Positions 1 through 59,950 of a stretch of 64,000 nucleotides of DNA are shown in pieces. Both the position numbers and the translations under genes were made by a program. How positions within the stretch are numbered: the first letter of the stretch is position 1; each line of letters opens with the position of its first letter. The notes beneath the pieces are model-generated. The model saw only the letters and a list, made by a program, of their open reading frames with translations. It was not told where the DNA came from and searched no databases. This DNA comes from Cyanidioschyzon merolae (Eukaryota). Where the stretch lies: NCBI GenBank assembly GCA_000091205.1, contig AP006487.2; one strand, 5' to 3'.

Positions 1-1882
1 ACCGGCGTAGGTCGTATGCCGGATGGTTGAACAAGTCACAGATGCTGAGCGATACAAGAGTACGCGGAAAATAAGATTCCAAGGGTTTTGTGAAATGTGG
101 AAGCATCTCTATGACGAGAACTGACGCCATTTGCAACATTACTAGCATTCTTCGCGCGTTCGAATACGCTGGTTCTAGTCACGGGTACTGCACCAACACG
201 AAAACCCGGTACGGTCCCGGGACGGAGCACTCCCAAATGGCACCGCTGTCGCTCGAGCGCGCCTCTGGCCATCGAGAGGCGAGGTCTCCATGACAAGCAC
301 CTAAGGCCAGACCAGATTAAAATGGGATGCTGAACAGCTCGAGTTGCCTGTGCCTTTCGATTTCTTTTACAGACCCTTTTAGTAGTAGAGCCTCGAAAAT
401 TCGAGGTATAGGAGTGAGGGTTTACGGACTCACAGCTAGTTTTCGGATTCTTGTTCGTCTAGTCTGAGCGGGTACTTTGGCGATTTAGAGTCGGAAATTG
501 CTACAGAGTCAAGATGACTCACAATAGACTTGGACTAGTGCCAGAAAAGTAACCAATGACATCATCCAATTCACAAGTACAGACCACCACTGTTCTCTTC
601 ATAATAGATGTAGTGTGCTCATATTATATATTCTTTGTGTTCTCGATCTTTCTCTTACAGAGCAACTGGCTAGCGTACGAATGAGGTCGGCTGGATTGAT
701 GACGAAAAAACCTCGACGTCGTTTCTTGCTGAATTCTTCAAATGCTCGCGCCAAAAGTTTATGGGATGCGTCACTCCAAATCCTCGACTCTGTTCGGGAG
801 AGAAATCCTCCTCGTTTCGTCGCCATTGACGAAGCTGAATTCGACGGCAACATGAGAAAACTCACGGGAGGTGCTCACAGAGACTTCGTTCTCTTCTATC
901 TGCATGTAAAAGGGTCTTGGACTCGGATTTTAGTCATAGCAGTGATCGCTCCTGGAAGGGAATACCTCATCGCCCGGCAAGAAGGGACCGTAGCCGAATA
1001 GAAAAACAAGTTGTCGACTTGTTCTCCAGGCTAGATCCTGCTTCCAGTACTAGCTTGGTCAAGAACAACCTGGCATTCTACAAATACTTTATGGACTGGG
1101 GGAGCGTGCGCTTGTGCACGCAAAGCACGGAGTACTTGCCAACGGCACCGCCCAGACGGAGGCCATCGTCTTTGGGTATGGGGTGCGACGCAGAAACGGA
1201 GGACACCATCAAATGCAGACATCTGCATCCGGCAGGGGTATCTGTCGAGCGATAAAGCAAGTGCCGGCGGGCAACGCTCGGAGGAGGAGATATTGAGGAC
1301 AAACTGTAACACCTGACCACAGGTAAGTGTCACCACGACAAAGGACACACCAGGGCTGTATGTGTAGAAGATGAAAATGGCAAGCGAAGCGAATATCGTA
1401 TCTTCCGCCTGTTCATTCAGAGCGTCAGTAACAGCGAAAAGCAATGACCTTGAGAATGACACTGGTGTCAACATGCCTCGAGTTTTGACAACCAAACGGG
1501 AGCGAAAATGCAAACTGGTGTATTTGAAGCCTCAGATGATAGAGAGGAACGCGCAGCAGTCCCCGATAATGCCAGCAAAGGCTGGGCTCGATGAATGTGG
1601 TCAGATATCCAAACTTTCGCATATGCGCCCCTGTCAGGGGACGTTCCATTTTATGCTGAACTGAGTGTGAGTACCAGCGCGTGGCAGCGTACCACGCAGC
1701 ACAACCAGTTTGGGCGTTTTCGGAGCACCACTGGTGCAAGCTTGAGCTTTCAAGCTTGTTGCACGCAATAGCGTCTTGCTGTATGCGCTGAGTTGCGGAG
1801 GATCGTTCAAAGCGCTGGGAGCACGACGTGCAAGCGAAACTGAAAGCTCGCCGGGTGGAGAACGTTTCTGGAGCTGTTCGCT

Positions 1883-2746
1883 ATGTTTGCACAGCTGGTG
1901 ATGGGACCGGCCGGTTCGGGCAAGTCCACGTACTGCCATGCTCTGCAGCAACACGGTGAGATCGTCGGCCAACTGGTGCACGTAGTGAACCTTGACCCTG
2001 CTGCCGAGCGTTTCGAGTACAAGCCTGTTGCGGATATTCGGGATCTTATCACTGTCACAGACGTTGCGGAAGAACTTAGTCTAGGCCCGAACGGATCCCT
2101 AGTCTACTGCATGGAGTACTTGCTTGAAGATCAAGACTGGTTAGAGCAAGTTCTCTCTGAGACAGCAGAGGACGACTACCTGGTTTTTGATATGCCGGGT
2201 CAGATAGAACTGTATACGCATTTCGAGTGCGTTCGGCAGTTCGTTTACGTCCTCCAGAGCCAGTTCAGCATGCGTGTATGCAGCATATTCCTTCTTGATG
2301 CACAGTTTCTCGCCGATGCATCAAAATTTTTCGCGGGCTCGCTTACCGCCATGGCAGCAATGCTGCATCTCGGGTTGCCACACCTTAACGTCCTCAGCAA
2401 AGCGGACCTGCTGCGACACAGGATCGAGCATCGCGATAACACGCTGGAGCCTTTGTCCTCGGACGCTGAGGCACCCAACTCTGACGAGGCACTTGATGAG
2501 TTCCTGGAGCGCTTCCTCAATCCTGATATACAGTCGCTTGTTTCGGAGCTCAGTGAACAGATGGATACACGGTACCGAGCTCTCAATGAACGGATAGGTG
2601 CCTTGCTAGAAGACTACGCAATCGTACAATTCGTTCCTTACTCTGCCACTGATGAAGACAGCATCGGTGAATTGCTGCTGCGTGCGAATCTGCTGCTCCA
2701 ATACGATGATGATCGTGACGTTCGAATTCATCCCGAACTCGACTAG
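1883..2746 (+). CDS. GPN3: GPN-loop GTPase 3 (GPN3/XAB1 family)
   Basis: 287-aa ORF with ATG at 1883. The P-loop 'MGPAGSGKST', the 'VNLDPAAE' segment and 'DMPGQIELYTH' are collinear with GPN3 orthologues. Confidence 0.85.
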   Translation: MFAQLVMGPAGSGKSTYCHALQQHGEIVGQLVHVVNLDPAAERFEYKPVADIRDLITVTDVAEELSLGPNGSLVYCMEYLLEDQDWLEQVLSETAEDDYLVFDMPGQIELYTHFECVRQFVYVLQSQFSMRVCSIFLLDAQFLADASKFFAGSLTAMAAMLHLGLPHLNVLSKADLLRHRIEHRDNTLEPLSSDAEAPNSDEALDEFLERFLNPDIQSLVSELSEQMDTRYRALNERIGALLEDYAIVQFVPYSATDEDSIGELLLRANLLLQYDDDRDVRIHPELD

Positions 2747-3939
2747 GATTGGCGGACTGCAATCCGGTTGAGGATTTGCTCACTGTGCACCATTGCCGAC
2801 TGCATATAGATGACGAGCCCCAGTCTTATGAAGACAAATGGTGCAAGCAGGCTTTCGGTCATAAAAATGGTTTCTTGGGCACTGGCAGCGAGCCTACGAT
2901 TCTCGCTTAACGAACGAACGGCATGCATCCGATTTCAGTCGAAGCGCTATACATTGGTGGATGTGTTGTGCACCGGTGCGGGTAAAGCGCCATCCTGCAT
3001 CGACAGATGAGCTGTACGTCTCGCAAAAAGCGTGCAGTATGGCATCGCCGGTTGAGATGTATGCCTCGCAGCTGACGCGCTGTATATTCTCAGGGATGCT
3101 GTATCCTGCTCTAAGGGAATTGCCACTTCGTCGTCCGTCCCTTTACAAGTTGCCAGCCGCGCTCACAACAGGAGCGAATGGGACATATTCCCTCGACAAC
3201 TGCTGACTGCGAAACGCGAGCCTGAGGTTGGTGTCGAACCTGAGAAACACCGCTCCGCTTTAGTTCTACTTGTGTAACCAGATTTCCGCGTGTATCCTTT
3301 CAATTAGCCACATGTCTGGCTTCTGCAGTACGTCTGGCCAGCCGCAGGAAGCCCCACGTCGCTACCTCAACCGATCAGCGTTCTCGCTTCCTACACGCCA
3401 CCGCGCAAGCGACCTTTCACGAGGATCGTTCACAGGGACGGTTCGTACCTACCCGCGCAAAATTGTGCGCAGAGAGAAAAAAAGCATACCTAGCGATAAC
3501 GAGGTCAACAAAGCCGCAGTCGCCCCGTGTCCAGAAAACCAGGTACCGCTATTCAAGGGCTGCGCGCTCGGCAGAGAGCTGTACTCGAGCGTAATCCTTT
3601 TCTTTCGCCGCTCCTTTACCCAAATTCCGCGAAAAGTTTTCCAGTTGAAAACTTTGGGACGGTGATTCCGCCCAAAGTATGCACGAGCAACCAAAGAAGA
3701 CTGCTTCGTGCTCATGAACGACTTTGGAGACAAAGCGCCAGCTCCTAGCGAAGCACCCACACAGCGCTAACGAATAGTTGAGCACTGCGCGTTCCTGTTG
3801 TTGCTAACGTCACCTGCACAGGATGCAGGCTCGTTTATGCCTCGAGCTGACACTCGCAGATGCATCACATGCCATACACTGCCTTCGTGCGAGGCCTGCG
3901 ACGTGTCCAGCATCTACAAGGTTGCACGACGGATGAAGT

Positions 3940-4655: not shown

Positions 4656-6458
4656 ATGCGACGGAAGGCGACCAGCTGGAGTCCGATTTTGGCGTACGGC
4701 GTGTCCCTGACGGGCACAGAGCGTTGGTCTGCAGCACCGCGCACCTCAGTACAACTGCTTGGCGCTTTCCTCAGCTGGAGAGGTGCTCCAGACGGGTGCC
4801 GCTGTCGGCAATCTGGATCCAAAAACGTGCGCTGGTTAAAGGCAAGTGTGAGGCAGCGGCATCAGCCGTCGGGGGCCGAAGCGCGTCCGGCTCAGCCACT
4901 CGTTATCACGACGCCCTTGTTTTACGTCAACGCGGCTCCTCACATGGGAAGTGCTTACCCTACTATGGCCTGCGATGCGTTGGCTCGATACCACCGAATG
5001 CAGGGGCGTGCAGTGCGTTTTATAACGGGTACTGATGAGCACGGTGAGAAAATTGCACAGGCAGCTGCGGCTGCGGGTCGCACACCGCAAGAACACTGCG
5101 ACCTTGTTTCCGGGGAGTTCAGGGCGCTTTGGGCGAAGCTCAACATCTCATATGATCGATTTATTAGGACAACATCGGCGAACCATGCAGCCATGGTCAT
5201 GACATTCATGGAACGAGTGTTGCAGCGGGGAGACATCTACAAGGCAAGCTACGAGGGACTCTACTGTACCGGCTGTGAGGAGTACAAAGACCCCAAGGAG
5301 CTCGTGGAGGACACCCAGTGTCCACTGCATCTCAAGCGCTGCGAACAGCGAGCGGAGGAAAACTACTTCTTCCGTCTATCGCGATATCAGGCCCAGGTTG
5401 AGGCACTGCTGGCAAACGACGACTTTATGCGACCGGCCGAGCGCCGCAACGAGGTGCTCTCCTGGGTCCGCGAAGGTCTCCGCGATTTCAGCGTCTCGAG
5501 AGCCAAGAACCCCTGGGGTATCCCAATGCCGAACGATGCGAGCCAAACTATCTATGTATGGTTTGATGCGCTGCTCGGCTACCTGACTGCGCTCTTCGAT
5601 GAAGATGAACCGCCGCAGCTCGAAAAAGTCGAAGAACGCGGCTGGCCGGCGCACGTTCACGTCCTCGGAAAGGACATTACGCGTTTTCACGCGTGTTACT
5701 GGCCTGCCATGCTACATTCAGTAGGACTGAACGCACCCCAGCAACTATTTAGTCATGGATTTCTCACCAAGGATGGCATGAAAATGGGCAAATCCCTCGG
5801 AAACACCCTCGATCCTCATGCCCTGGTGGATGAATTCAACGCTGATGCAGTGCGATACTACTTCCTGCGTGGTATCGAGTTTGGTCGCGACGGTGATTTC
5901 TCGCGCGATCGCTTCATCCAGATAGTGAATGCTGAACTAGCGAATAGTGTTGGCAACCTTCTCAATCGAACGCTGAACCTTCTGAAACGACACAACAATC
6001 TATCATTGCCGGTTGTAGCACCAAGTGCGCATCCCTTGGCAGACCTTACCCGAACGTGCACCGCTGAAGCAGCAGCTGCATACGAGAAACTGGACTTCTC
6101 AGGAGCAGCCGAAGCGCTCATGCGTATCGCCTCGGAAGCGAACAGCTTCATCGATCACGAAGCACCATGGACCAAACTACGCAATCCAGAGACCAAGTCC
6201 GAAGCTTTTGCTGTTCTCGCCGTTATTCTCGAAGCCGTGCGAGTCCTTGGTGTTGCGTTGTGGCCACTGATCCCCGAGACCAGTGAGCGCATGCTGCGCG
6301 CGCTCTGCTACCCTGTAGCGGGGCCAGGCGAGGTAGCGAGCACAGCAGCGGCATTCGTGCCTTCGTGGCATGACACCGAGTGGAACGCCCGCAGAGACCT
6401 GTTGCAGCCTGGTGTGCGTTTTCGCACCCCAGAGCCAGTGTTTCCCCGTCTAGAATAG
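4656..6458 (+). CDS. methionyl-tRNA synthetase, bacterial/organellar type, with a roughly 90-aa Arg-rich N-terminal presequence
   Basis: 600-aa ORF. The class-I signature region 'PLFYVNAAPHMGSAYPT' and a KMSKS-type motif 'MKMGKSLGN' are present, with zinc-knuckle cysteines 'CTGCEEYKD...CPLH'. Confidence 0.9.
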   Translation: MRRKATSWSPILAYGVSLTGTERWSAAPRTSVQLLGAFLSWRGAPDGCRCRQSGSKNVRWLKASVRQRHQPSGAEARPAQPLVITTPLFYVNAAPHMGSAYPTMACDALARYHRMQGRAVRFITGTDEHGEKIAQAAAAAGRTPQEHCDLVSGEFRALWAKLNISYDRFIRTTSANHAAMVMTFMERVLQRGDIYKASYEGLYCTGCEEYKDPKELVEDTQCPLHLKRCEQRAEENYFFRLSRYQAQVEALLANDDFMRPAERRNEVLSWVREGLRDFSVSRAKNPWGIPMPNDASQTIYVWFDALLGYLTALFDEDEPPQLEKVEERGWPAHVHVLGKDITRFHACYWPAMLHSVGLNAPQQLFSHGFLTKDGMKMGKSLGNTLDPHALVDEFNADAVRYYFLRGIEFGRDGDFSRDRFIQIVNAELANSVGNLLNRTLNLLKRHNNLSLPVVAPSAHPLADLTRTCTAEAAAAYEKLDFSGAAEALMRIASEANSFIDHEAPWTKLRNPETKSEAFAVLAVILEAVRVLGVALWPLIPETSERMLRALCYPVAGPGEVASTAAAFVPSWHDTEWNARRDLLQPGVRFRTPEPVFPRLE

Positions 6459-17538: not shown

Positions 17539-18699
17539 TTTTTCTGCATGAGCTCGTGAAAAAAGCCGTCAATGGATGAGGTCGAGCCCTTTTTCTCCGA
17601 AATCATAATACACAAAATGCTGCGCACACACGAGTTGCAACAGAAACATCCAATGTTAAGCAATATGTAGTTCGAGCATGCTACACGTAAGAAAAGGAGA
17701 AACGCGGATACTCGTACGTATCCATTGCATGATGATATCCACTACTGAACGAACCCTCGTTCTAGAGCGTCGCCAGCCATCCTGACTCAGATGACGTTAC
17801 AAAAAATCCTGCAGCAAAGCGTCCGCGGCGCGACTCCGAACAGGCTCCTGAGAATCCTAAAACTGCACATGAACACGTAAGCCCTTTTTCCTGCAGTTCG
17901 AATGTCGGCGTTGTACATCTTATAATGGTTCGAAAAATCGAAAGGCAGGCAGAAGCCAGCAGTTCTGTGCTCTATTTTTATTTGGCGCGGATGTCGAGCG
18001 CATGGCAACCAGCGACGCATGACGTCTGCCGCGGGATCGAGGACCCTATCCGAAGAACCCCAGTTGCGCAGATCTAGTGGGCAGTTAGGAGCAAACGACC
18101 GCCGTTCCCTTCTAGATTCCTCCATTCTTTCAAAGCTGTCCAGACGAGCCTAGCCGATGCCAAGAGAGGCTTGAGCGATCCACAACAACCATGCGGATAC
18201 CGCGGACGCCTTGCGAGGCCGTGACGGTGCCGCTACGCCTCAGCGGACTTCGACTAGAGACGAGGTTCGTTCAACAGGGAGATTCGGAGCTCGTCGTCGG
18301 CTTCGGACGCCAACTGGCATTACTGACAGCTTCGCTGCATGCAGCAGCGCGGACGGCCACACGAGAGGAACGCAGTGACCACAGCAAAACGGAGGCGCTG
18401 AGCACAGTCCGCCCCCGTTCACAGTCGCAGGAACATGTGTACAACGCTGTGGAGCGGCGCGAGCGACGCAGCGGCACGCACCACTGCGCAAGTACGCTGA
18501 CCACTGTACAGACTGATGGGTACACTTCACAAAAACTCTCTGCATCGAATGTAGCGTCGTCCAAGTCTCGAAAATACTACCAAATACCGCCTCTATCCGA
18601 TGGAAAACCAGGAGTGGTGTTGTTGGTACCCAGAGGACGCTGGAGCGGAGCATGCCACGCTTCCTCGGGTAGCGGGAGCCCCGTGTCACGCCCCTAGCA

Positions 18700-25320: not shown

Positions 25321-26589
25321 GAAGTCGTCGATTGCTGCGGCGGATTGCGCGGGCGCGATGCATTCGCGGTGGCGTTTTTCTCCAGTTGATGGTGTTCCAG
25401 CTGCAGATGCGTGCCACTGCATGTGCTTTTTTGCGATCTATAGCAGACGCGGTCGAATTGGATTCACTTGAAGGATTTAAAACATCTAGGAGAATGGTAT
25501 GGGCGTAAAAGTGGAGGATTTTGGAGCGTCGCCATCGCTCGGTTCTGCAAAGAAACGGGAACGATCCTCCTCTGACTGACGATCGTGCGACGAAGACGAA
25601 GAAGAACAGGGCAGAGTAGGCGAGAAAGTGTGTTTGCCTAACGAGATCATCACGGAACTGTAGTGGCAGAGAGGACGCAAGATCGAGGAATCATCGCAGT
25701 GGTGCGTTCAGCTTGCTGCGGAGCACATAGAGAACTCGTGAAGCGAGACTTCAACGCCGCCGTCGATACCAGAAAAGGTGCGGTACCGCAGACGAGAGAC
25801 GCGAGCGATGTGACGCGGGCGAAGGTTGCGGGCCAGCCTCACAGCATCGGCGTGTACGGGGTTAAGCTGAAGCCGATAGCAGGCGGCTGGTCAAAACAAG
25901 CAGGGAGGCGTCTGAGCGTAGGAATGTAAATATCATTCACGGTCGAGGGACATTTTTTGTTTTCCTGACCCTCTCCAGGATACAATGAAGCATGTTGCCT
26001 GACCAGGGCGTAAACGCTCAAGTTCGGGCTCTTTTTTAACGATCTTGAATACTTGCGTTCGCGGGCCTGTCTGTAACCGCTTCCTTTGCCTGTCTCTCGG
26101 ATTTCCGGCTTTCAATATGCGAGTCCTTTGTTTTCCTGTGGATCCGTTGTAATCAAAAGAAGGACGTTTATGGCAGTTTGAAGGCCCCGATTCTGAAGTT
26201 CCAGGCTGTTCTCGACACCGCTAATGCACAACTGGAGGTTGCGATCAACGCTTTCGTTGTGTTCTTGCGATCTTCTTTGGATAGAACTGCGGTGTGCTCG
26301 TCGCAGCGGTGAGAGTTGCCTGTCATCAGATGTTCGCATGCGCCCAACAAATTCCCTCGTCCGAGCGATTCCCCTCTGTCGTGGAAACGCTTGCTTCAGC
26401 GCTCGATGCATTGCCTCAACGGATACGGAAAGCGCGACTCGATGCTTTGCTGCGGTGAAGCCTCTGGGCGATGCCCGCGGCGAGTACCCTCGTTGCGGCA
26501 CGGCGCACGCGCACGCTGTTCCATAAGGCAGAGAATTTCGTGGAATGCACAATGTCGTCCATGATGAACCAAGTATCCGACGGGAAGTG

Positions 26590-37095: not shown

Positions 37096-37379
37096 TTTCC
37101 CGAATGTGCACGGCAGCTCGTTGACACGCTCGTGTACACGCGGGATACCTGATCGAGCGCTCGGTATTCGGTGTGCGGTGAGGCATCCGTCGTTCCACGA
37201 GTTGCTTCCGAGTTCAACTGCCAGCACGTTCCCTCTAAGATACTGGTTATTCATTTGTTCTATTGTGGATCGAATGCGGGCAATGAGCGTCACGGGCTTC
37301 GCTTCTAGCGTCAGAGCGGTCGTCGACTGTGCGTGATGCGGCGCGTGCGCTGAGGGCGCTGGCTGGTACTTGGCCGTGT

Positions 37380-38600: not shown

Positions 38601-39023
38601 CTACGAGTGCTGTGTAAAGCGCGTTCGACAGCGACAGCACTCATAGAGGATGGTTTGACCCTCATCTGCGCTGCGCATCTGCACAGTCTCGTAATAGAGC
38701 TCCTGACTGTTACATTTGGGACAACACTCGCCCCCGCGAACGACTTGACGCGTTGCTTCCATGGACGGATCCGTGGTCAGTGCAGCGGCGGCGGACCCAG
38801 CGCGCCCGTCCTCACCGGAGACACGCTTCGTATACGCCGCTTGCAGTTCTAAAAGAAGTTGTGTAGGTCGCACAGGGACCTCGTACACGATGGTTTTCTG
38901 AGGCAAGGGCGGCAACGAGCCACAGCCGACACACGGTTTTGGCTCGCCGGCTTCGACTGGCTCCCTGTAGCGTCCGCAGCAGTCGCAGAACTGTGTTTCC
39001 ACCCAGTCCTCAATGGAGGCCAT
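38601..39023 (-). CDS. DNA-directed RNA polymerase small subunit with TFIIS-type zinc ribbon (RPA12/RPB9/RPC11 family)
   Basis: The N-terminal zinc ribbon is 'CDCCGRY...CVGCG'. The C-terminal ribbon 'CPKCNSQELYYETVQMRSADEGQTILYECCRC' carries the invariant 'RSADE' acidic loop. Confidence 0.75.
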   Translation of the reverse strand: MASIEDWVETQFCDCCGRYREPVEAGEPKPCVGCGSLPPLPQKTIVYEVPVRPTQLLLELQAAYTKRVSGEDGRAGSAAAALTTDPSMEATRQVVRGGECCPKCNSQELYYETVQMRSADEGQTILYECCRCRTRFTQHS

Positions 39024-39139: not shown

Positions 39140-40800
39140 TAGAGGCACTGACCACGCAGCGGGTCGATGACGTACAACGCGCGTGGTTTTCTGTTTTGGC
39201 AGAACGTTGATCTGGACCATGGATACTAGATCCTGGGATGGATATTGCTGTTCGGGAAAGCGTCCATTAGTCTTCACTCTACCTCCGAATTCCATGACCC
39301 ATACTTCCCCTCGGATGTACTGGTCGTTTCGTACGTTCCATTGTGCACCGAGCGCATGCGATGGGCGTCTACGCTAGCGAATGTACTGCTGGGGCGGATG
39401 CAGCACGGACAGAGAACGGCTTGGCCATGCCATTCAGGCCGTCCACTCGAGGCGCAGTGCCTAGGGCGCGGAGTAGGAACTCATCCTCAACCTGGGAGCC
39501 AGCAAGCTGCGCAGACAGACCTACTGCCCGTGACAGTGCGGAGCGATTTGCTCGGATGATCCGGCGACCGGTGGAATACCTGGATGTAGCCTAATCACGA
39601 CTAGTCCAGGAAGAAAGTGCCTCGCGGGCGAGTTGCTCAGGTCGCAACCCCTGTATCCGCCGCGGGAGGCAGCACGAAGCACTTGCCTGGCACACTCGTC
39701 CGGCTCGTGGGACGCTCCACCTGGAAGGTAAACTTGCAGGAATGTGGAAAATTTTGCCCCCTTTTACCGTTTCTCGTCCAGGGGAAAGAAACTGTTATCG
39801 AGTTGCTCGGTAGTGGGTATTTTCTGTCTTTCGGCACAGTTGCAACGAGTAAGCGGTTACTTTCTGGTCTTAGCACCTCGGATGCCTCGTCGAATCATTG
39901 AAGACCTGTCCTGGACGTCCGGCGATGTCCTCGTACTGGACAACATGGCGTTTCACCGTTGCCCTTAAGTTCGAGCAGCAGCTTCTTATTCCTCCTCCGT
40001 GCACTCGTTTGTTGAACCGTATTGAAGGAGTGTTATCTTTCGGGAAATATCATGATCGCCCGAGTAAGCGAATCGCTGAAACGTTCAGTACACGATGACA
40101 CTAAGGCACATGTCGTCTTTTTTCCGCAAGTCCTTCGTCCTCCGGTAAGGTCCTAACCCAAGCGCATAAACAAGTGCGATCATTCCCAATAATAAAGCAT
40201 CCAAGGGATAAGCCAGAACAGACACTCCAGAAAGTCGAAAATGAGAGAAGCCAGCGGAGCGCTCCGGCGATAGAAACCCACAGAGAGCTGACAGAGCAGT
40301 AAATGGCACAGAAGAAACCAGTCCGAGGAATCTCTGGTTTGGCGAGATCAACCAGAAGTAAAATACATATAGAGTTCGTGAACCGCGACTCCAACGCCGC
40401 CATCAATATCACGAGATGTGCATTCCGAAACGCGACACCTGTGAAGCTCACACGAGCGAACTTTGCGGGACACCCCCCTGAGGATCCAAATGAACACGGA
40501 TAAACTGAAACCGATAACCGTCAACCAGGCAAAAAACGACCGCGATGCATCCGCGCCCCCCGAGTACCCATCTGTAGCCCGTCGACGTGAGACGCGCGCG
40601 ATCCGGACACGTCTCGTGAACGGATCGCGCGCGTGCATGCAGGTGCCGCTGCGCCACTCGCTCGCGGAACACCAACTGCTCCCTCGATCGGCGCTCGCGG
40701 GTGGAACGGCGCAGCGGCGCTGGGGCGCTCACCTGGCGGCCGTCGCACTCGACAGCACGCAGCGCTGCGATGCGTGCCGCATCCGGATCCGTGCGGCGGG
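39140..40800 (+). mobile_element. internally deleted Fanzor/TnpB-like element (copy 2): conserved left module, nuclease C-terminal relic, conserved 3' tail
   Basis: 39140-39730 shares four conserved blocks with 56630-57190. 40130-40503 is homologous at protein level to the C-terminus of the 58116-59706 nuclease. About 200 nt of non-coding homology follow the stop codon. The boundaries are approximate. Confidence 0.5.
40130..40503 (+). pseudogene. Fanzor/TnpB-like nuclease C-terminal fragment (RuvC-III 'NRDSNAAINITRC') with an in-frame stop
   Basis: Frame-1 translation '...LQKVENERSQRSAPAIETHRELTEQ*MAQKKPVRGISGLARSTRSKIHIEFVNRDSNAAINITRCAFRNATPVKLTRANFAGHP' aligns with '...LQRDEMEKCHRRSEDIEKYGPLTEERMERRAKVRGLVAFVSRNRGEKGVECANRDFNAAVYIRRCAVPEKRPEESTRANFVGHP' of copy 1. 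The RuvC-II region is degenerate. Confidence 0.6.
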
Positions 40801-56629: not shown

Positions 56630-59600
56630 CATGCATCGACAGCAGCAGCGCGGGCGTGATTTTACTTCGATCACAAAATTCGTTTCCAGGGGCCATGGAT
56701 CCCAGATTGCGCGATGGGCAATGGCTCTGGGGAAAGTCTCCACGATGATGCATCCACGGCCAAGTTCCATTGCTTATACTTCCTTTCGGATGCACTGGTC
56801 GTTTCGTACGTTCTGTTGTGTGCCGAGTATCTGCCTTGATGCACCAGCAATAGCGCTTATATCCCTGGTAAGGATACAGCGCGAAGACAGAGCGGATTCT
56901 TCATACTACTGACGGCGTCGAATCGAGGAATGCTACATTTATTGACAGGGAGTCACGGCAAATTATCATTCTGGGAGTCTGCAAGCTGCGCAGACAGCAT
57001 TCTGCCTGTGGCAGCGCGAAGCGATATACTAGGAGTCCACTGCCACTAGTGCGACGTCCAGACGCAGCCTGATTGCCCCTAGTCCCAGAACAGACTGCGT
57101 TGCGGACGAGCTACGCAGATCTCTCTAAAGCACCAGCCAGTTTCGAGGCACACCGAGCACCAGCCCGGCAAACTCGTCCGGCGCGCTGCACTGTTCACCT
57201 AGAAGAAAAACTTTCGACAACATAGAATCCTTTTCCCCCTTTTAATGTTTATCACAGAGGGAGAGAAGGAATTGTAATCTCGTAAGTGGATCATAGTGAT
57301 TCTCTGTTCTTTGTTCTAAATAGTGCGGTTGATACTCGCATCTGGGAGATCTGGCCGTCACGAGGCACGACGCGCATCTCGCCGTTGAAGGGAAACACGT
57401 TTCTGATCAATACCGTGTTGCTCTAATGTACAAGTTATATTTGGGTTAAAATCATAGCGAATTATAGTCTTTCAATTCAATTCTATTTCAATTCTCAGGG
57501 GAGTGTATTCAAGTGATTTTTCGCGGTGTATATTAGAAGCTTTCAAAGAGTCTTCTTTTTCAAAAAATTAAAGAAGGAAAGATATAGAAAGGAAAGTAGA
57601 GGATCCCGGCGGGCCGTTTTCTCCGGCTGTCGGAAAGAAACGGAACGCAGTGCCAAGCAAAGAGGAACACGACAGGACGAAGAAGCGAAAGAAGGATGCC
57701 AGACGTCAAAAGCTGCGAGCAAGTCGACAGTACGACGAGATAGGAGCCAAAGCCCTTCTTCTACGCCGCAGCAAGGATCCCTAAAGCAAATAACGCATGA
57801 GGTCATCAAAAAAACGTGTCGCGTCTTACGCTATGAGTATTATAAAGGCTTCTTCAGGACTGATGCATTGTCGAAGATGTACGACAACGTGACGGAAATT
57901 CGAAGAGTCGAGGTTCCGGCAGAGTTTATCAACAGGACCTTTATTCGCCTCCTGATGGTTGGCACAGGGGAAACGCCGAGGAGAAATGAGCGAGAGCATG
58001 TCCTCCACGAAAATCACAAGGAATACCGCTTCAACGGTACTCGGCACAGGGACGGCGCGGATATCTACACATACGGTGTGAAAAGTACCTCACGAACCTG
58101 AAGAACCATTTCATAATGAGCCTCAAACGCTTCGTGATACGCGCCGTCTTTGCACTCTACCCGGGTATCTCTCGCAGAGGCAGACGGGCCAGCATCGATG
58201 GCATCACGAACGACAGCAGGAGTGAACGGGAGATCGAATTCGTCCACGAGGAGACTTCAAACCGGAGTATGAATGAAGCTTCCGTGGCCCGTGCGGCTAT
58301 GCAAGAGCACCGTGCGGTCTTAGGGCTTGTCAACCCAGCGGAAAAGATATCAGATATGAAAAAGGATGGAAAAGGTGCGATTCCCTCATCCTGCGTTATT
58401 TCGTGTCCCTGAACCGAGAGCGCGAACGCAAGGCCGATATGGCGCCGGCCCTAAAAAATCGAGAGTCGGACAAACGGAAGGCTTTCCTACGAGAGAGGCG
58501 CTTCAACGTTGTTCGGATTTGCGGGATCAAGTCGGATTTCGTGACCATCAACTCCAGCGTCCTCTACTGGATCATGAGGAAGATCAGTATAGAGTTCTGT
58601 GTAAGCAACAAGGAATTCATCGGCGAGAGCCGGGAAACGTATTGGAAGAATATCCTCGATCTGAAGCGTCTCAAAACGAGCATGCGAGGGGTATCCGCGG
58701 GGATCGTCGAAACCGATAGGGTATCCATAGGTGTTCACTGACGGCGCTTGAGGGCGGATCGCCCGGTTCCATCTTCGTTGTCACCCGTGACGGAGCATGA
58801 AGGAAAGAAGGAGGCGGATCCTGCGACGCCGGCGGTGCAGGAGAACGACCGTGTCGTTGGCACGGACCGCGGAAATACGAATACCATAATCATCGCAGTA
58901 CCCAAGCCTGGGGAAGATGGTATTGACGGCAACTTATGCGAGAAAGACACGCGACTTTTGGAGTTCGCGAGAGCGAGCTATGACCGAGAATCCGGTATAA
59001 TGAATGCCAGGAAGAAAATTGAGACATGGAATGCAGGAGTCAAGGAAGAGCTGGAAGCGATCAGCCAGGTGCCTATCCGCGGAGCGGACTTTCGAGATTT
59101 TCGGGAGCTCGTGAAAATTCGCGTTGCTCATTGCGAGGATCTGTGCAAGGGGTTTGCAAAGTACCGGCTTGGTGGGCTCGTCACCACACGAACTTGTACT
59201 GTGGGGAGCAGTGTCTATTCGCGAGCTTTTCCAACCAGCTGGGCGCCCTCAAGGAAGACGATAGTCAAAGGCTCGTAACAGCGTGTGAAGCAGAGCGCTG
59301 GGCGCCAAAACAAAAGGAGTGTACGCCCGCTCCGTCGCCACGAGCGTACAAGGAGTACGCACGGCGTTTTGTTACGATACATGTAGATGAGTTCCGAACT
59401 TCATACATACAATACGAGTTGGGGTGTCCGCTCCAGAGGGACGAGATGGAAAAGTGCCATCGACGCTCTGAGGATATAGAAAAGTACGGACCGCTGACGG
59501 AAGAGCGAATGGAAAGGAGGGCGAAAGTTCGAGGACTAGTCGCATTCGTAAGTAGAAACAGAGGCGAGAAAGGTGTGGAGTGTGCGAACCGAGACTTTAA

Positions 59601-59950
59601 TGCCGCTGTGTATATCAGGAGATGCGCAGTGCCGGAGAAGAGACCCGAGGAGTCGACGAGGGCCAACTTTGTGGGGCACCCCTATTCCCCCTCCGCCCCG
59701 AGGTGAAATTGCACGCGAATACGTTGAAACCAGCAGTAGGTGGCCAGTCAAGGAAAACGGGTAGGCGTCTGCACGCCGGTGCGTGGACATCCAGCCTACG
59801 GCCGGGCGGCGCGCTGCCCGCCACCACTGCACACCAGAAGCGCAGCGTTTGCCGCCTGGAAGAGAGTCGTTGCTGCCGGTGTTCCTCTAGTCGAGTTTAA
59901 GAGTTTGGACCGGTCGTTCCTGTAAATCTCGATGAGATTGGGATTTTAAA
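56630..59950 (+). mobile_element. Fanzor/TnpB-like element (copy 1): conserved left module, AT-rich island, frame-disrupted nuclease gene, conserved 3' tail
   Basis: Left module is 56630-57190, with blocks shared with 39140-39730. An AT-rich island follows at 57190-57600. The nuclease relic spans 58116-59706. The 3' tail of about 250 nt runs to the next gene (59970) and is homologous to 40503-40750. Confidence 0.5.
58116..59706 (+). pseudogene. Fanzor/TnpB-like RuvC nuclease gene, frame-disrupted (or intron-interrupted)
   Basis: The RuvC-I motif 'RVVGTDRGNTNTIIIAV' lies at about 58850-58900 in frame 2. The RuvC-II motif 'IRVAHCEDLCKGFAKY' is also in frame 2, with the E codon at 59135. After a shift to frame 1 near 59175-59200 come 'RRFVTIHVDEFRTSYIQYELGC' (the conserved TS motif that precedes the zinc finger), a degenerate zinc finger 'C...C.H', and the RuvC-III motif 'ANRDFNAAVYIRRC' with the D codon at 59593. 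An in-frame TGA at 58739 and at least one frameshift break the reading frame. A possible N-terminal 'RFVIRAVFALYPG' lies in a third frame at 58116. Confidence 0.6.

Follow-up and report, generated by a model that had tools for sequence, protein, structure and literature searches.

A probable composite transposon relic, with a Fanzor1 tail and a mariner-type transposase remnant, on chromosome 5 of Cyanidioschyzon merolae

A single family of Fanzor1 elements, CMe-1A, was described from Cyanidioschyzon merolae by Bao and Jurka in 2013 (Mob DNA 4:12; PMC3627910). The family was reported as some 150 copies, each about 80% identical to a 3169-bp consensus; its authors saw neither inverted repeats nor target duplications and listed its transposon class as unknown (PMC3627910). 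The 5' 635 bp of CMe-1A are 95% identical to an entire second element, TE-N2_CMe (here TE-N2), which has about 70 copies (PMC3627910). We consider here a relative of both, "copy 2", in a 64,000-nt stretch of chromosome 5 of C. merolae 10D (the window, to whose full length all positions refer). A better preserved relative, copy 1, lies in the same window (Table 1). The original prediction took copy 2 for a truncated, dead Fanzor-derived locus, produced by deletion from an element like copy 1 and belonging to a multicopy, once-mobile family. The published copy number bears out the last point. As to its origin, we read the stretch from 39194 to about 40595 instead as a dead composite relic, in which a TE-N2 copy and a 5'-truncated element of another kind, which we call type T, lie nested and decaying, and we put the probability of this reading at roughly 80%.

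Compared with the published description, copy 2 belongs to the same organism and the same family. Its 5' unit matches consensus 1-636 from end to end, its Fanzor tail corresponds to consensus 2751-3044, and it shares with CMe-1A the absence of inverted terminal repeats and of any clear target duplication; it differs in having a DDE_3 transposase remnant and another 3' terminus, both of them absent from that consensus. A second relevant system is PUl-1 of Pythium ultimum, a Mariner/Tc1-borne Fanzor1 (PMC3627910; Jiang et al. 2023, PMC10530073). There too the transposase gene is upstream of Fanzor1 on one strand, the transposase reads 'DN..H ... PPYSP.LNP(I/V)E', and the Fanzor cores can be aligned (DE(F/Y)RTS, NRD.NAA). 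In PUl-1, however, there are inverted repeats of 24 bp together with TA duplications, features that are not demonstrable in the C. merolae elements; the transposase similarity is weak (5.4 bits), and the type-T Fanzor is internally deleted. In Spizellomyces punctatus, Fanzor-less 'ghost' derivatives of Spu-1 outnumber or accompany the full elements and keep the omega-RNA end region (Saito et al. 2023, PMC10432273), much as here; in Spu-1, inverted repeats of 30 nt are conserved and a small RNA has been demonstrated, whereas copy 2 is heavily decayed and has no inverted repeats. The IS200/IS605 TnpB-omega-RNA (OMEGA) systems would share the ancestral nuclease fold, have the order of the RuvC motifs in common, have the guide RNA at the 3' end, overlapping the C-terminus of the nuclease, and resemble full-length ("type-F") copies of our family in the subterminal hairpin of the latter. 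The C. merolae elements differ in having no Y1 transposase and a eukaryotic host, and copy 2 in having RuvC-III alone.

The Fanzor-derived tail of copy 2 is recognisable in both protein and DNA comparisons. With the CMe-1 consensus protein as query against the window (tblastn), residues 616-701 fall on 40222-40476 at 51% identity over 86 amino acids (E 5.9e-18), and a metagenomic homologue (P0037) is 46% identical to the tail over 84 amino acids (E 5e-15). The translation of 40132-40503 scores 195 against the CMe-1 consensus protein in local BLOSUM62 alignment (z=34.3 relative to shuffles) and 163 against the copy-1 C-terminus, compared with 28.3 +/- 4.8 in 500 shuffles (z=27.8); the predicted similarity to the C-terminus of copy 1 is thus real and well beyond chance. 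At the DNA level, for which the CMe-1A consensus was taken from the supplementary file of PMC3627910 and mapped onto the window, 40222-40475 corresponds to consensus 2751-3007 at 69.7% identity, and nhmmer places model positions 2750-3044 on 40221-40513 (E 2.4e-27).

Homology opens at 40222 with 'TLQKVENERSQRS' against 'TLQRVEMEKCQRS', opposite 'LQRDEMEKCHRRS' in copy 1. The tail contains the RuvC-III motif 'NRDSNAAINITRC', in which NRDSNAA occupies 40381-40401, and 'TRANFAGHP', both as originally predicted, although 'GHP' is not the terminus it had been taken for: the family open reading frame (ORF) reaches about 33 codons further and ends '...NFVGQPLKVELYEKKLEAVVGGRSKKTGRRLHVSWRRFV*'. Because that end lies beyond 'GHP', similarity can be followed, past a frameshift near 40476-40500, to about 40553 ('KLKPITVNQAKN' vs 'KKLEAVVGGRSKK'). 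The interval first proposed, 40130-40503, was therefore right about the match in the tail and off at both edges, as the frame runs from 40132, homology starts only at 40222, and the end is near 40553. The in-frame TAA that had been noted is indeed at 40300-40302, where copy 1 has CGA (Arg) and the family consensus CAA (Gln). A 66-codon ORF at 40303-40503 opens merely because of this upstream stop codon and has neither RuvC-I nor RuvC-II. With RuvC-I and RuvC-II both missing, homology that begins downstream of RuvC-II, and a frame broken by the TAA and the frameshift, the locus is truncated and dead, as had been supposed. Neither a nuclease nor a transposase can be encoded by copy 2, which probably yields no functional product of either kind and appears to be decaying neutrally.

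Between the end of the TE-N2 unit and this tail are 390 bp with no match to CMe-1A. They comprise the C-terminus of a DDE_3 transposase (IS630/Tc1-mariner type) and spacer DNA. The transposase remnant shows the motifs 'VLVLDNMAFHR' and 'LLIPPPCTRLLNRIEGV', with a stop and a frameshift after the first of these, followed by 'LLIPPPCTRLLNRIEGVLS...RIAETFSTR*'. We compared the stretch with 80 related metagenome loci (L001-L080); by blastn, four of the 80 (L016, L031, L032 and L064) match it, and all four alignments begin at 39887-39891. Residues 170-201 and 230-243 of a transposase stitched together from L016 map to the remnant (tblastn). Against Pfam DDE_3, protein P0085 scores 42 bits, above the cut-off of 28.6, which establishes the catalytic domain at the level of the family; P0080 scores 27.5 bits and an ORF of L064 24.4 bits (E 2.8e-5). 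The transposases translated from the four loci are degenerate, with an N-terminal helix-turn-helix 'ATGVSVSQQL...' and the motifs 'DET', 'LLLDN..FH' and 'PPY...NPIEG'. The 55 bases at 39832-39886, between the TE-N2 unit and the remnant, match neither the CMe-1A consensus, nor type-T elements, nor the 57 nt found after the TE-N2 unit of L054.

The four loci define the type-T element, which is about 1.4 kb long. The elements are about 70% identical to one another and share their 5' and 3' boundaries while their flanks are unrelated, and thus have moved as units. In order, they consist of a 5' end that resembles CMe-1A consensus ~785-860, the transposase, a spacer with the Fanzor start, an internally deleted Fanzor, and a 3' end collinear with CMe-1A up to about consensus 3090 and different from it beyond. 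A hidden Markov model built from the four finds 39885-40553 in the window with an E value of 3.8e-98 (and 25456-25915, within a further relative called copy 3, with 3.8e-51), and copy 2 aligns with L016 without a break from 39889 to 40418, across the junction of transposase, spacer and tail. Copy 2 has this junction in common with all four loci, and since these are independent, the truncation of the Fanzor gene is older than the present insertion and marks a sub-lineage. At the 3' end, similarity to L031, L016, L032, L019, L030 and copy 3 is gradually lost beyond 'CGTCGACGTGAGAC'. Just where the resemblance to type T fades, at 40592-40634, there is a 20-nt inverted repeat (ACGCGCGCGATCCGGACACG / CGTGAACGGATCGCGCGCGT) whose arms are 90% complementary and enclose a loop of 3 nt.

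The spacer bears on the fate of RuvC-II. The peptide 'RSFPIIKHPRD' had been aligned with 'RRFVTIHVDEF' of copy 1 as what remained of that region, and in this respect the prediction fails: the peptide is encoded by the spacer, which lies inside the continuous alignments to L016 and L031, and the best alignment of the same stretch to the RuvC-II region scores 20, as against 18.1 +/- 3.1 for shuffles. A better partner may be the A/T-rich segment just before the Fanzor ATG (consensus 869-894), to which 40172-40196 is identical at 20 of 25 positions with a score of 25 (shuffles 16.2 +/- 2.6, maximum 25). This is modest evidence that the spacer resembles the 5' untranslated region (UTR), and it agrees with the type-T copies, where the Fanzor start comes next after the spacer ('MEIEDPREASSPSS' vs 'MEKEVEDPGGPVSP'). 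From the spacer alignment and the collinear type-T copies, we conclude that RuvC-II is absent from copy 2 by deletion and not by mutation; that it had been lost was correctly predicted.

The other component is a complete, non-coding unit of TE-N2, a short element that is non-autonomous. Consensus 4-636 is found on 39197-39831 at 76.1% identity (blastn, E 1e-123), with consensus position 1 set at 39194 by hand register, and an nhmmer profile of the 5' module detects the unit with an E value of 7e-182; we used consensus 1-635 as a proxy for TE-N2, following the published equivalence. Direct comparison of copies 1 and 2 shows the same module (39214-39775 vs 56690-57253, 65% over 571 nt), outside the interval to which the similarity had first been assigned. 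Together with the nucleotide match to the published consensus, this unit places copy 2 in the CMe-1A / TE-N2 family. The 5' boundary of the module is sharp and the same in 38 copies ('...T-run CGATGACAAAACGTTTACAT...'), and the 5' match of copy 2 to CMe-1A ends exactly where TE-N2 ends, at position 636. TE-N2 moves independently of CMe-1A: in L054, a full unit (4674-5440) sits within the Fanzor ORF of a CMe-1A element, at consensus ~2248.

Table 1. Features of copy 2, its neighbours and its relatives in the window
Feature	Position	Strand	Remarks
Copy 2, whole relic	39194 to about 40595	+	
Complete TE-N2_CMe-like unit	39194..39831	+	non-coding; equals CMe-1A consensus 5' 636 bp
55 bases between TE-N2 unit and transposase remnant	39832..39886	+	no assignment
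DDE_3 (IS630/Tc1-mariner type) transposase remnant	39887..40098	+	C-terminal third; broken by stop and frameshift
Spacer	40099..40221	+	common to type-T elements; may resemble 5' UTR upstream of Fanzor ATG; encodes 'RSFPIIKHPRD'
Fanzor1 C-terminal pseudogene fragment	40222..40553	+	CMe-1 residues 616-701, then frameshifted to about residue 725; RuvC-III only
Degenerate type-T 3'-terminal region	40554..40595	+	exact end uncertain
RNA polymerase I subunit gene	38601-39023	-	annotated; just upstream of relic
VHS-GAT gene	ATG 40910		downstream of relic; long ORF, weak VHS and GAT domain matches
Copy 1	56668-59905	+	
Copy 3, mini-element	25374-25921	+	without transposase, without TE-N2
Copy 4	47407-45383	-	transposase C-terminal remnant, then diverged Fanzor1 remnant
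TE-N2 / CMe-1A 5' module fragment	18201-18578	+	
TE-N2 / CMe-1A 5' module fragment	21892-21672	-	
TE-N2 / CMe-1A 5' module fragments	28304-28103 and 28078-27789	-	tandem
TE-N2 / CMe-1A 5' module fragment	44813-44446	-	
TE-N2 / CMe-1A 5' module fragment	37135-37320	+	weaker
TE-N2 / CMe-1A 5' module fragment	4439-4257	-	weaker

The composite reading implies a history that we can only sketch. In the type-T ancestor a Fanzor1 gene would have been preceded by a DDE transposase gene of IS630/Tc1-mariner type, and the Fanzor1 gene would have lost most of its interior before copy 2 was inserted. A type-T insertion may then have been followed by a TE-N2 insertion, with loss of the 5' 750 bp of type T, or the truncation may have come first. 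The family as a whole may once have been mobile by way of DDE cut-and-paste, Fanzor1 serving as a nuclease guided by omega RNA and aiding the persistence of the element.

Several observations weigh against this reading or soften it. The junction of TE-N2 with type T is found at this locus only, which leaves the order of events two-way. The transposase remnant of copy 2, taken by itself, matches Pfam DDE_3 with an E value of only 0.037 and spans just the segment from the second D to the E. No intact DDE_3 transposase was found anywhere; all 14 database relatives are 255 amino acids or shorter and look degenerate, so that the former autonomy of type T is a supposition. There are no convincing terminal inverted repeats at the ends of type T or CMe-1A, only short motifs like CAAAACG/CGTTTTG, so that the family does not display this hallmark of IS630/Tc1-mariner elements. 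A TA can be placed beside both ends of several type-T copies, whose boundaries can be fixed only to within a few bases, and no clear TA duplication emerges; nine full elements likewise gave no evident target-site duplication beyond T-rich flanks. The family profile, searched against Protein Data Bank (PDB) sequences, gave no link to solved Fanzor or TnpB structures; its sole match there, angiogenin (E 0.55), was rejected as spurious. An AlphaFold2 model of the family, from a shallow alignment of 15 sequences, has a mean confidence (pLDDT) of 32.7. Lastly, the 'empty site' in sister taxa is based on length and on the absence of matches, since the sister intergenic DNA is too diverged to align. 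The coding anchors are 1898 nt apart in the window and 538 nt apart in L093, and the difference of 1360 nt equals 39194-40553; neither Cyanidiococcus yangmingshanensis nor GCA_041825655.1 has any match to the element models in intergenic regions or 16-kb loci, and in both the order of the genes is conserved, VHS-GAT and the RNA polymerase I subunit gene being divergently oriented. We regard this comparison as supportive, not base-precise.

Membership in Fanzor1 itself follows from the founding status of CMe-1, which is among the sequences on which Fanzor1 was founded and to whose family the window copies belong. Copy 1 (56668-59775 matches consensus 1-3087 at 79.9%) and the consensus have all three RuvC motifs, GADPGNTN, VDEFRTS and NRDFNAA. 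Copy 1 too is a pseudogene: its ORF is divided among three frames, there are at least three frameshifts, and one stop codon lies in frame. Support for Fanzor1 kinship that does not depend on the definition of the family is limited: CMe-1 and the PUl-1 Fanzor1 align over RuvC-II and RuvC-III ('AYG...(V/M)DE(F/Y)RTS...NRD(F/V)NAA', blastp E 4e-6). Pfam had no match for the pieces of the copy-1 ORF or for the intact homologues P0037-P0040.

Among the alternatives, an unlikely one has copy 2 as a 'ghost' in the sense of Spu-1, its tail and 3' region still supplying either the scaffold of an omega RNA or a transposon end that acts in cis, and such copies being maintained or mobilised in trans by the Fanzor1 of an intact CMe-1A. 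There is a precedent, as Fanzor-less loci with a common omega-RNA region are documented in S. punctatus and the omega RNA of other Fanzors lies in the 3' end region (PMC10432273). At least three different internal deletions in our material all retain consensus ~2833-3090 (copy 2 and L016 from ~2751, copy 3 and L031 from ~2833, L067 from residue 641). Full elements end in a terminal hairpin of 10-12 bp followed by 'GTTTGTTG' (consensus 3135-3169; 3' ends of L001-L080), and this hairpin is preserved as either of two sequence forms that exclude one another, AACGTTTTTC/GAAAGACGTT or CGTTCGA/TCGAACG, with GTTTGTTG after both. When sequences were folded individually, the hairpin had z < -1.5 in 68% of copies, with a mean z of -2.3. 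Retention of the ends is to be expected anyway, however, because derivatives that amplify must keep them. RNAalifold on 25 3' regions gave a weak consensus of -4.3 kcal/mol with little covariation and double changes in two pairs. Conservation is about the same at codon positions (0.74-0.83) as in the UTR (0.72), which gives no clear signal of selection and fits neutral decay; within type T, the tail (70.1%) shows no higher conservation than the part from the transposase (71.8%). Copy 2 itself has no type-F terminal hairpin, its type-T 3' end being truncated or diverged, and the entire window has no Rfam match. We would accordingly give only a small chance that the retained 3' region may have a function in cis or as RNA.

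A broader proposal, slightly less likely still, would join CMe-1A, TE-N2 and type T in one mobilisation group that has neither inverted repeats nor target duplications, with a common 5' end flanked by T-rich sequence and a common 3' end made up of the hairpin and 'GTTTGTTG'; copies 2 and 3 would persist by way of a tail-specified omega-RNA or end signal, read in trans by the Fanzor1 of the few intact copies. If this were true, the group would be a eukaryotic guide-RNA-dependent parasite-of-a-parasite system.

The simplest account, and the one originally favoured, is that copy 2 is an element of the copy-1 type with a single internal deletion from the 5' region to the last ~90 codons. The two ends of copy 2 do have counterparts in copy 1 and in the consensus, with order and orientation preserved. 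We nevertheless find this improbable, as the intervening 390 bp are transposase C-terminus and spacer, collinear with type T at four other loci, the 3' end past consensus ~3090 has the type-T form and not that of CMe-1A, and the 5' match halts at 636, the exact end of an independently mobile element. A related route, deletion between the repeats of the 9-mer ATGGAAAAG (consensus 906 and 2768), was rejected, as the tail starts at 2751, upstream of the second repeat. That 9-mer is found at consensus 906-914 (the Fanzor start codon) and 2768-2776 (the C-terminal region), and the pair is a possible substrate for in-frame internal deletions other than that of copy 2.

It is very improbable that the relic serves as promoter or 5' UTR of the VHS-GAT or RNA polymerase I subunit gene, or encodes a 66-residue micro-protein. 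It does fill most of the 1.9-kb divergent intergenic region between the two genes, and its structure is kept in all near-identical strains sampled (all contigs with an identical RNA polymerase I subunit gene); but retention in strains so close to 10D is uninformative, the two sister taxa of the same gene order show no trace of it, and the ORF has no RuvC-I or RuvC-II and begins owing to a stop codon.

The window is richer in relatives than the two copies first counted: we find at least four Fanzor-derived loci and six or more TE-N2 fragments. In copy 3 a 5' part (core 5' end, ATG and ~40 initial codons; 25374-25614, matching consensus 790-1019) is joined to a 3' part (~85 final codons and 3' region; 25664-25919, matching 2833-3088), each at about 68-69% identity, with breakpoints unlike those of copy 2. 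In copy 4 a stretch like the transposase C-terminus (47407-47225) precedes a diverged Fanzor remnant (46768-45383) with 25-28% identity to CMe-1, in which 'FAVDVDPG' and 'LVAYGAG' are recognisable; L061 has the same order, a transposase C-terminal remnant and then a diverged Fanzor remnant. Mariner-borne Fanzor1 elements such as PUl-1 have this tandem order as well. The 3'-terminal hairpin of copy 1 is degenerate, and its 3' end lies just ~65-110 bp before the ATG of CME033C (59970).

Some further features of TE-N2 may be recorded. Most of its fragments retain the low-numbered consensus end and are cut at variable points, a one-sided truncation, and nearly all copies have T-rich 5' flanks. A further hairpin, of 10 bp, lies in the TE-N2 3' region at consensus ~556-596 (CTTTCCCCCT...AGGGGGAAAG), with AAATTGTT after it. 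In copy 2 an 11-nt direct repeat (TTTTCTGTTTT / TTTTCTGTCTT) at 39187-39197 and 39820-39830 flanks the unit; its second member is part of the element consensus, and the 5' flank of copy 2 is thus like the element's own 3' end. At the L054 insertion a target of about 15 bp ('CAAGCGTGCGGAAGA') is repeated on both sides, a hint at a long target duplication, and 57 extra bases follow position 636. A retroposon origin of TE-N2, with the T-run as poly-A on the other strand, one-end truncation and the ~15-bp duplication in L054, was considered and not established.

The genome of C. merolae is a very compact red-algal one, among the smallest and most repeat-poor of algae. Three long ORFs of the window match deposited C. 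merolae proteins exactly (BAM79265.1; CYME_CME033C, BAM79266.1; and the methionine-tRNA ligase BAM79253.1). For the VHS-GAT gene downstream of copy 2, "abutting" was a loose description, as 315-355 bp separate its ATG from the 3' edge of copy 2 (about 40553-40595); the TTG 'start' of the long VHS-GAT ORF at 40463 does fall in the copy 2 tail, as had been noted.

Taken alone, copy 2 has very little significance: it is a decayed copy of a family catalogued in 2013, and the association of Fanzor1 with a Mariner-type transposase is of a known kind. What is new is only the extension of this association to a Cyanidiales family that was left without a class in 2013, with relatives of CMe-1A in the Cyanidiales having an IS630/Tc1-mariner-type transposase immediately upstream of Fanzor1. 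The CMe-1A family would then fall with the Mariner-borne Fanzor1 elements of oomycetes and other eukaryotes, and its full, transposase-bearing and nuclease-less derivatives would offer a set of material for testing what the Fanzor 3' region does, in an alga that is both small and genetically tractable.

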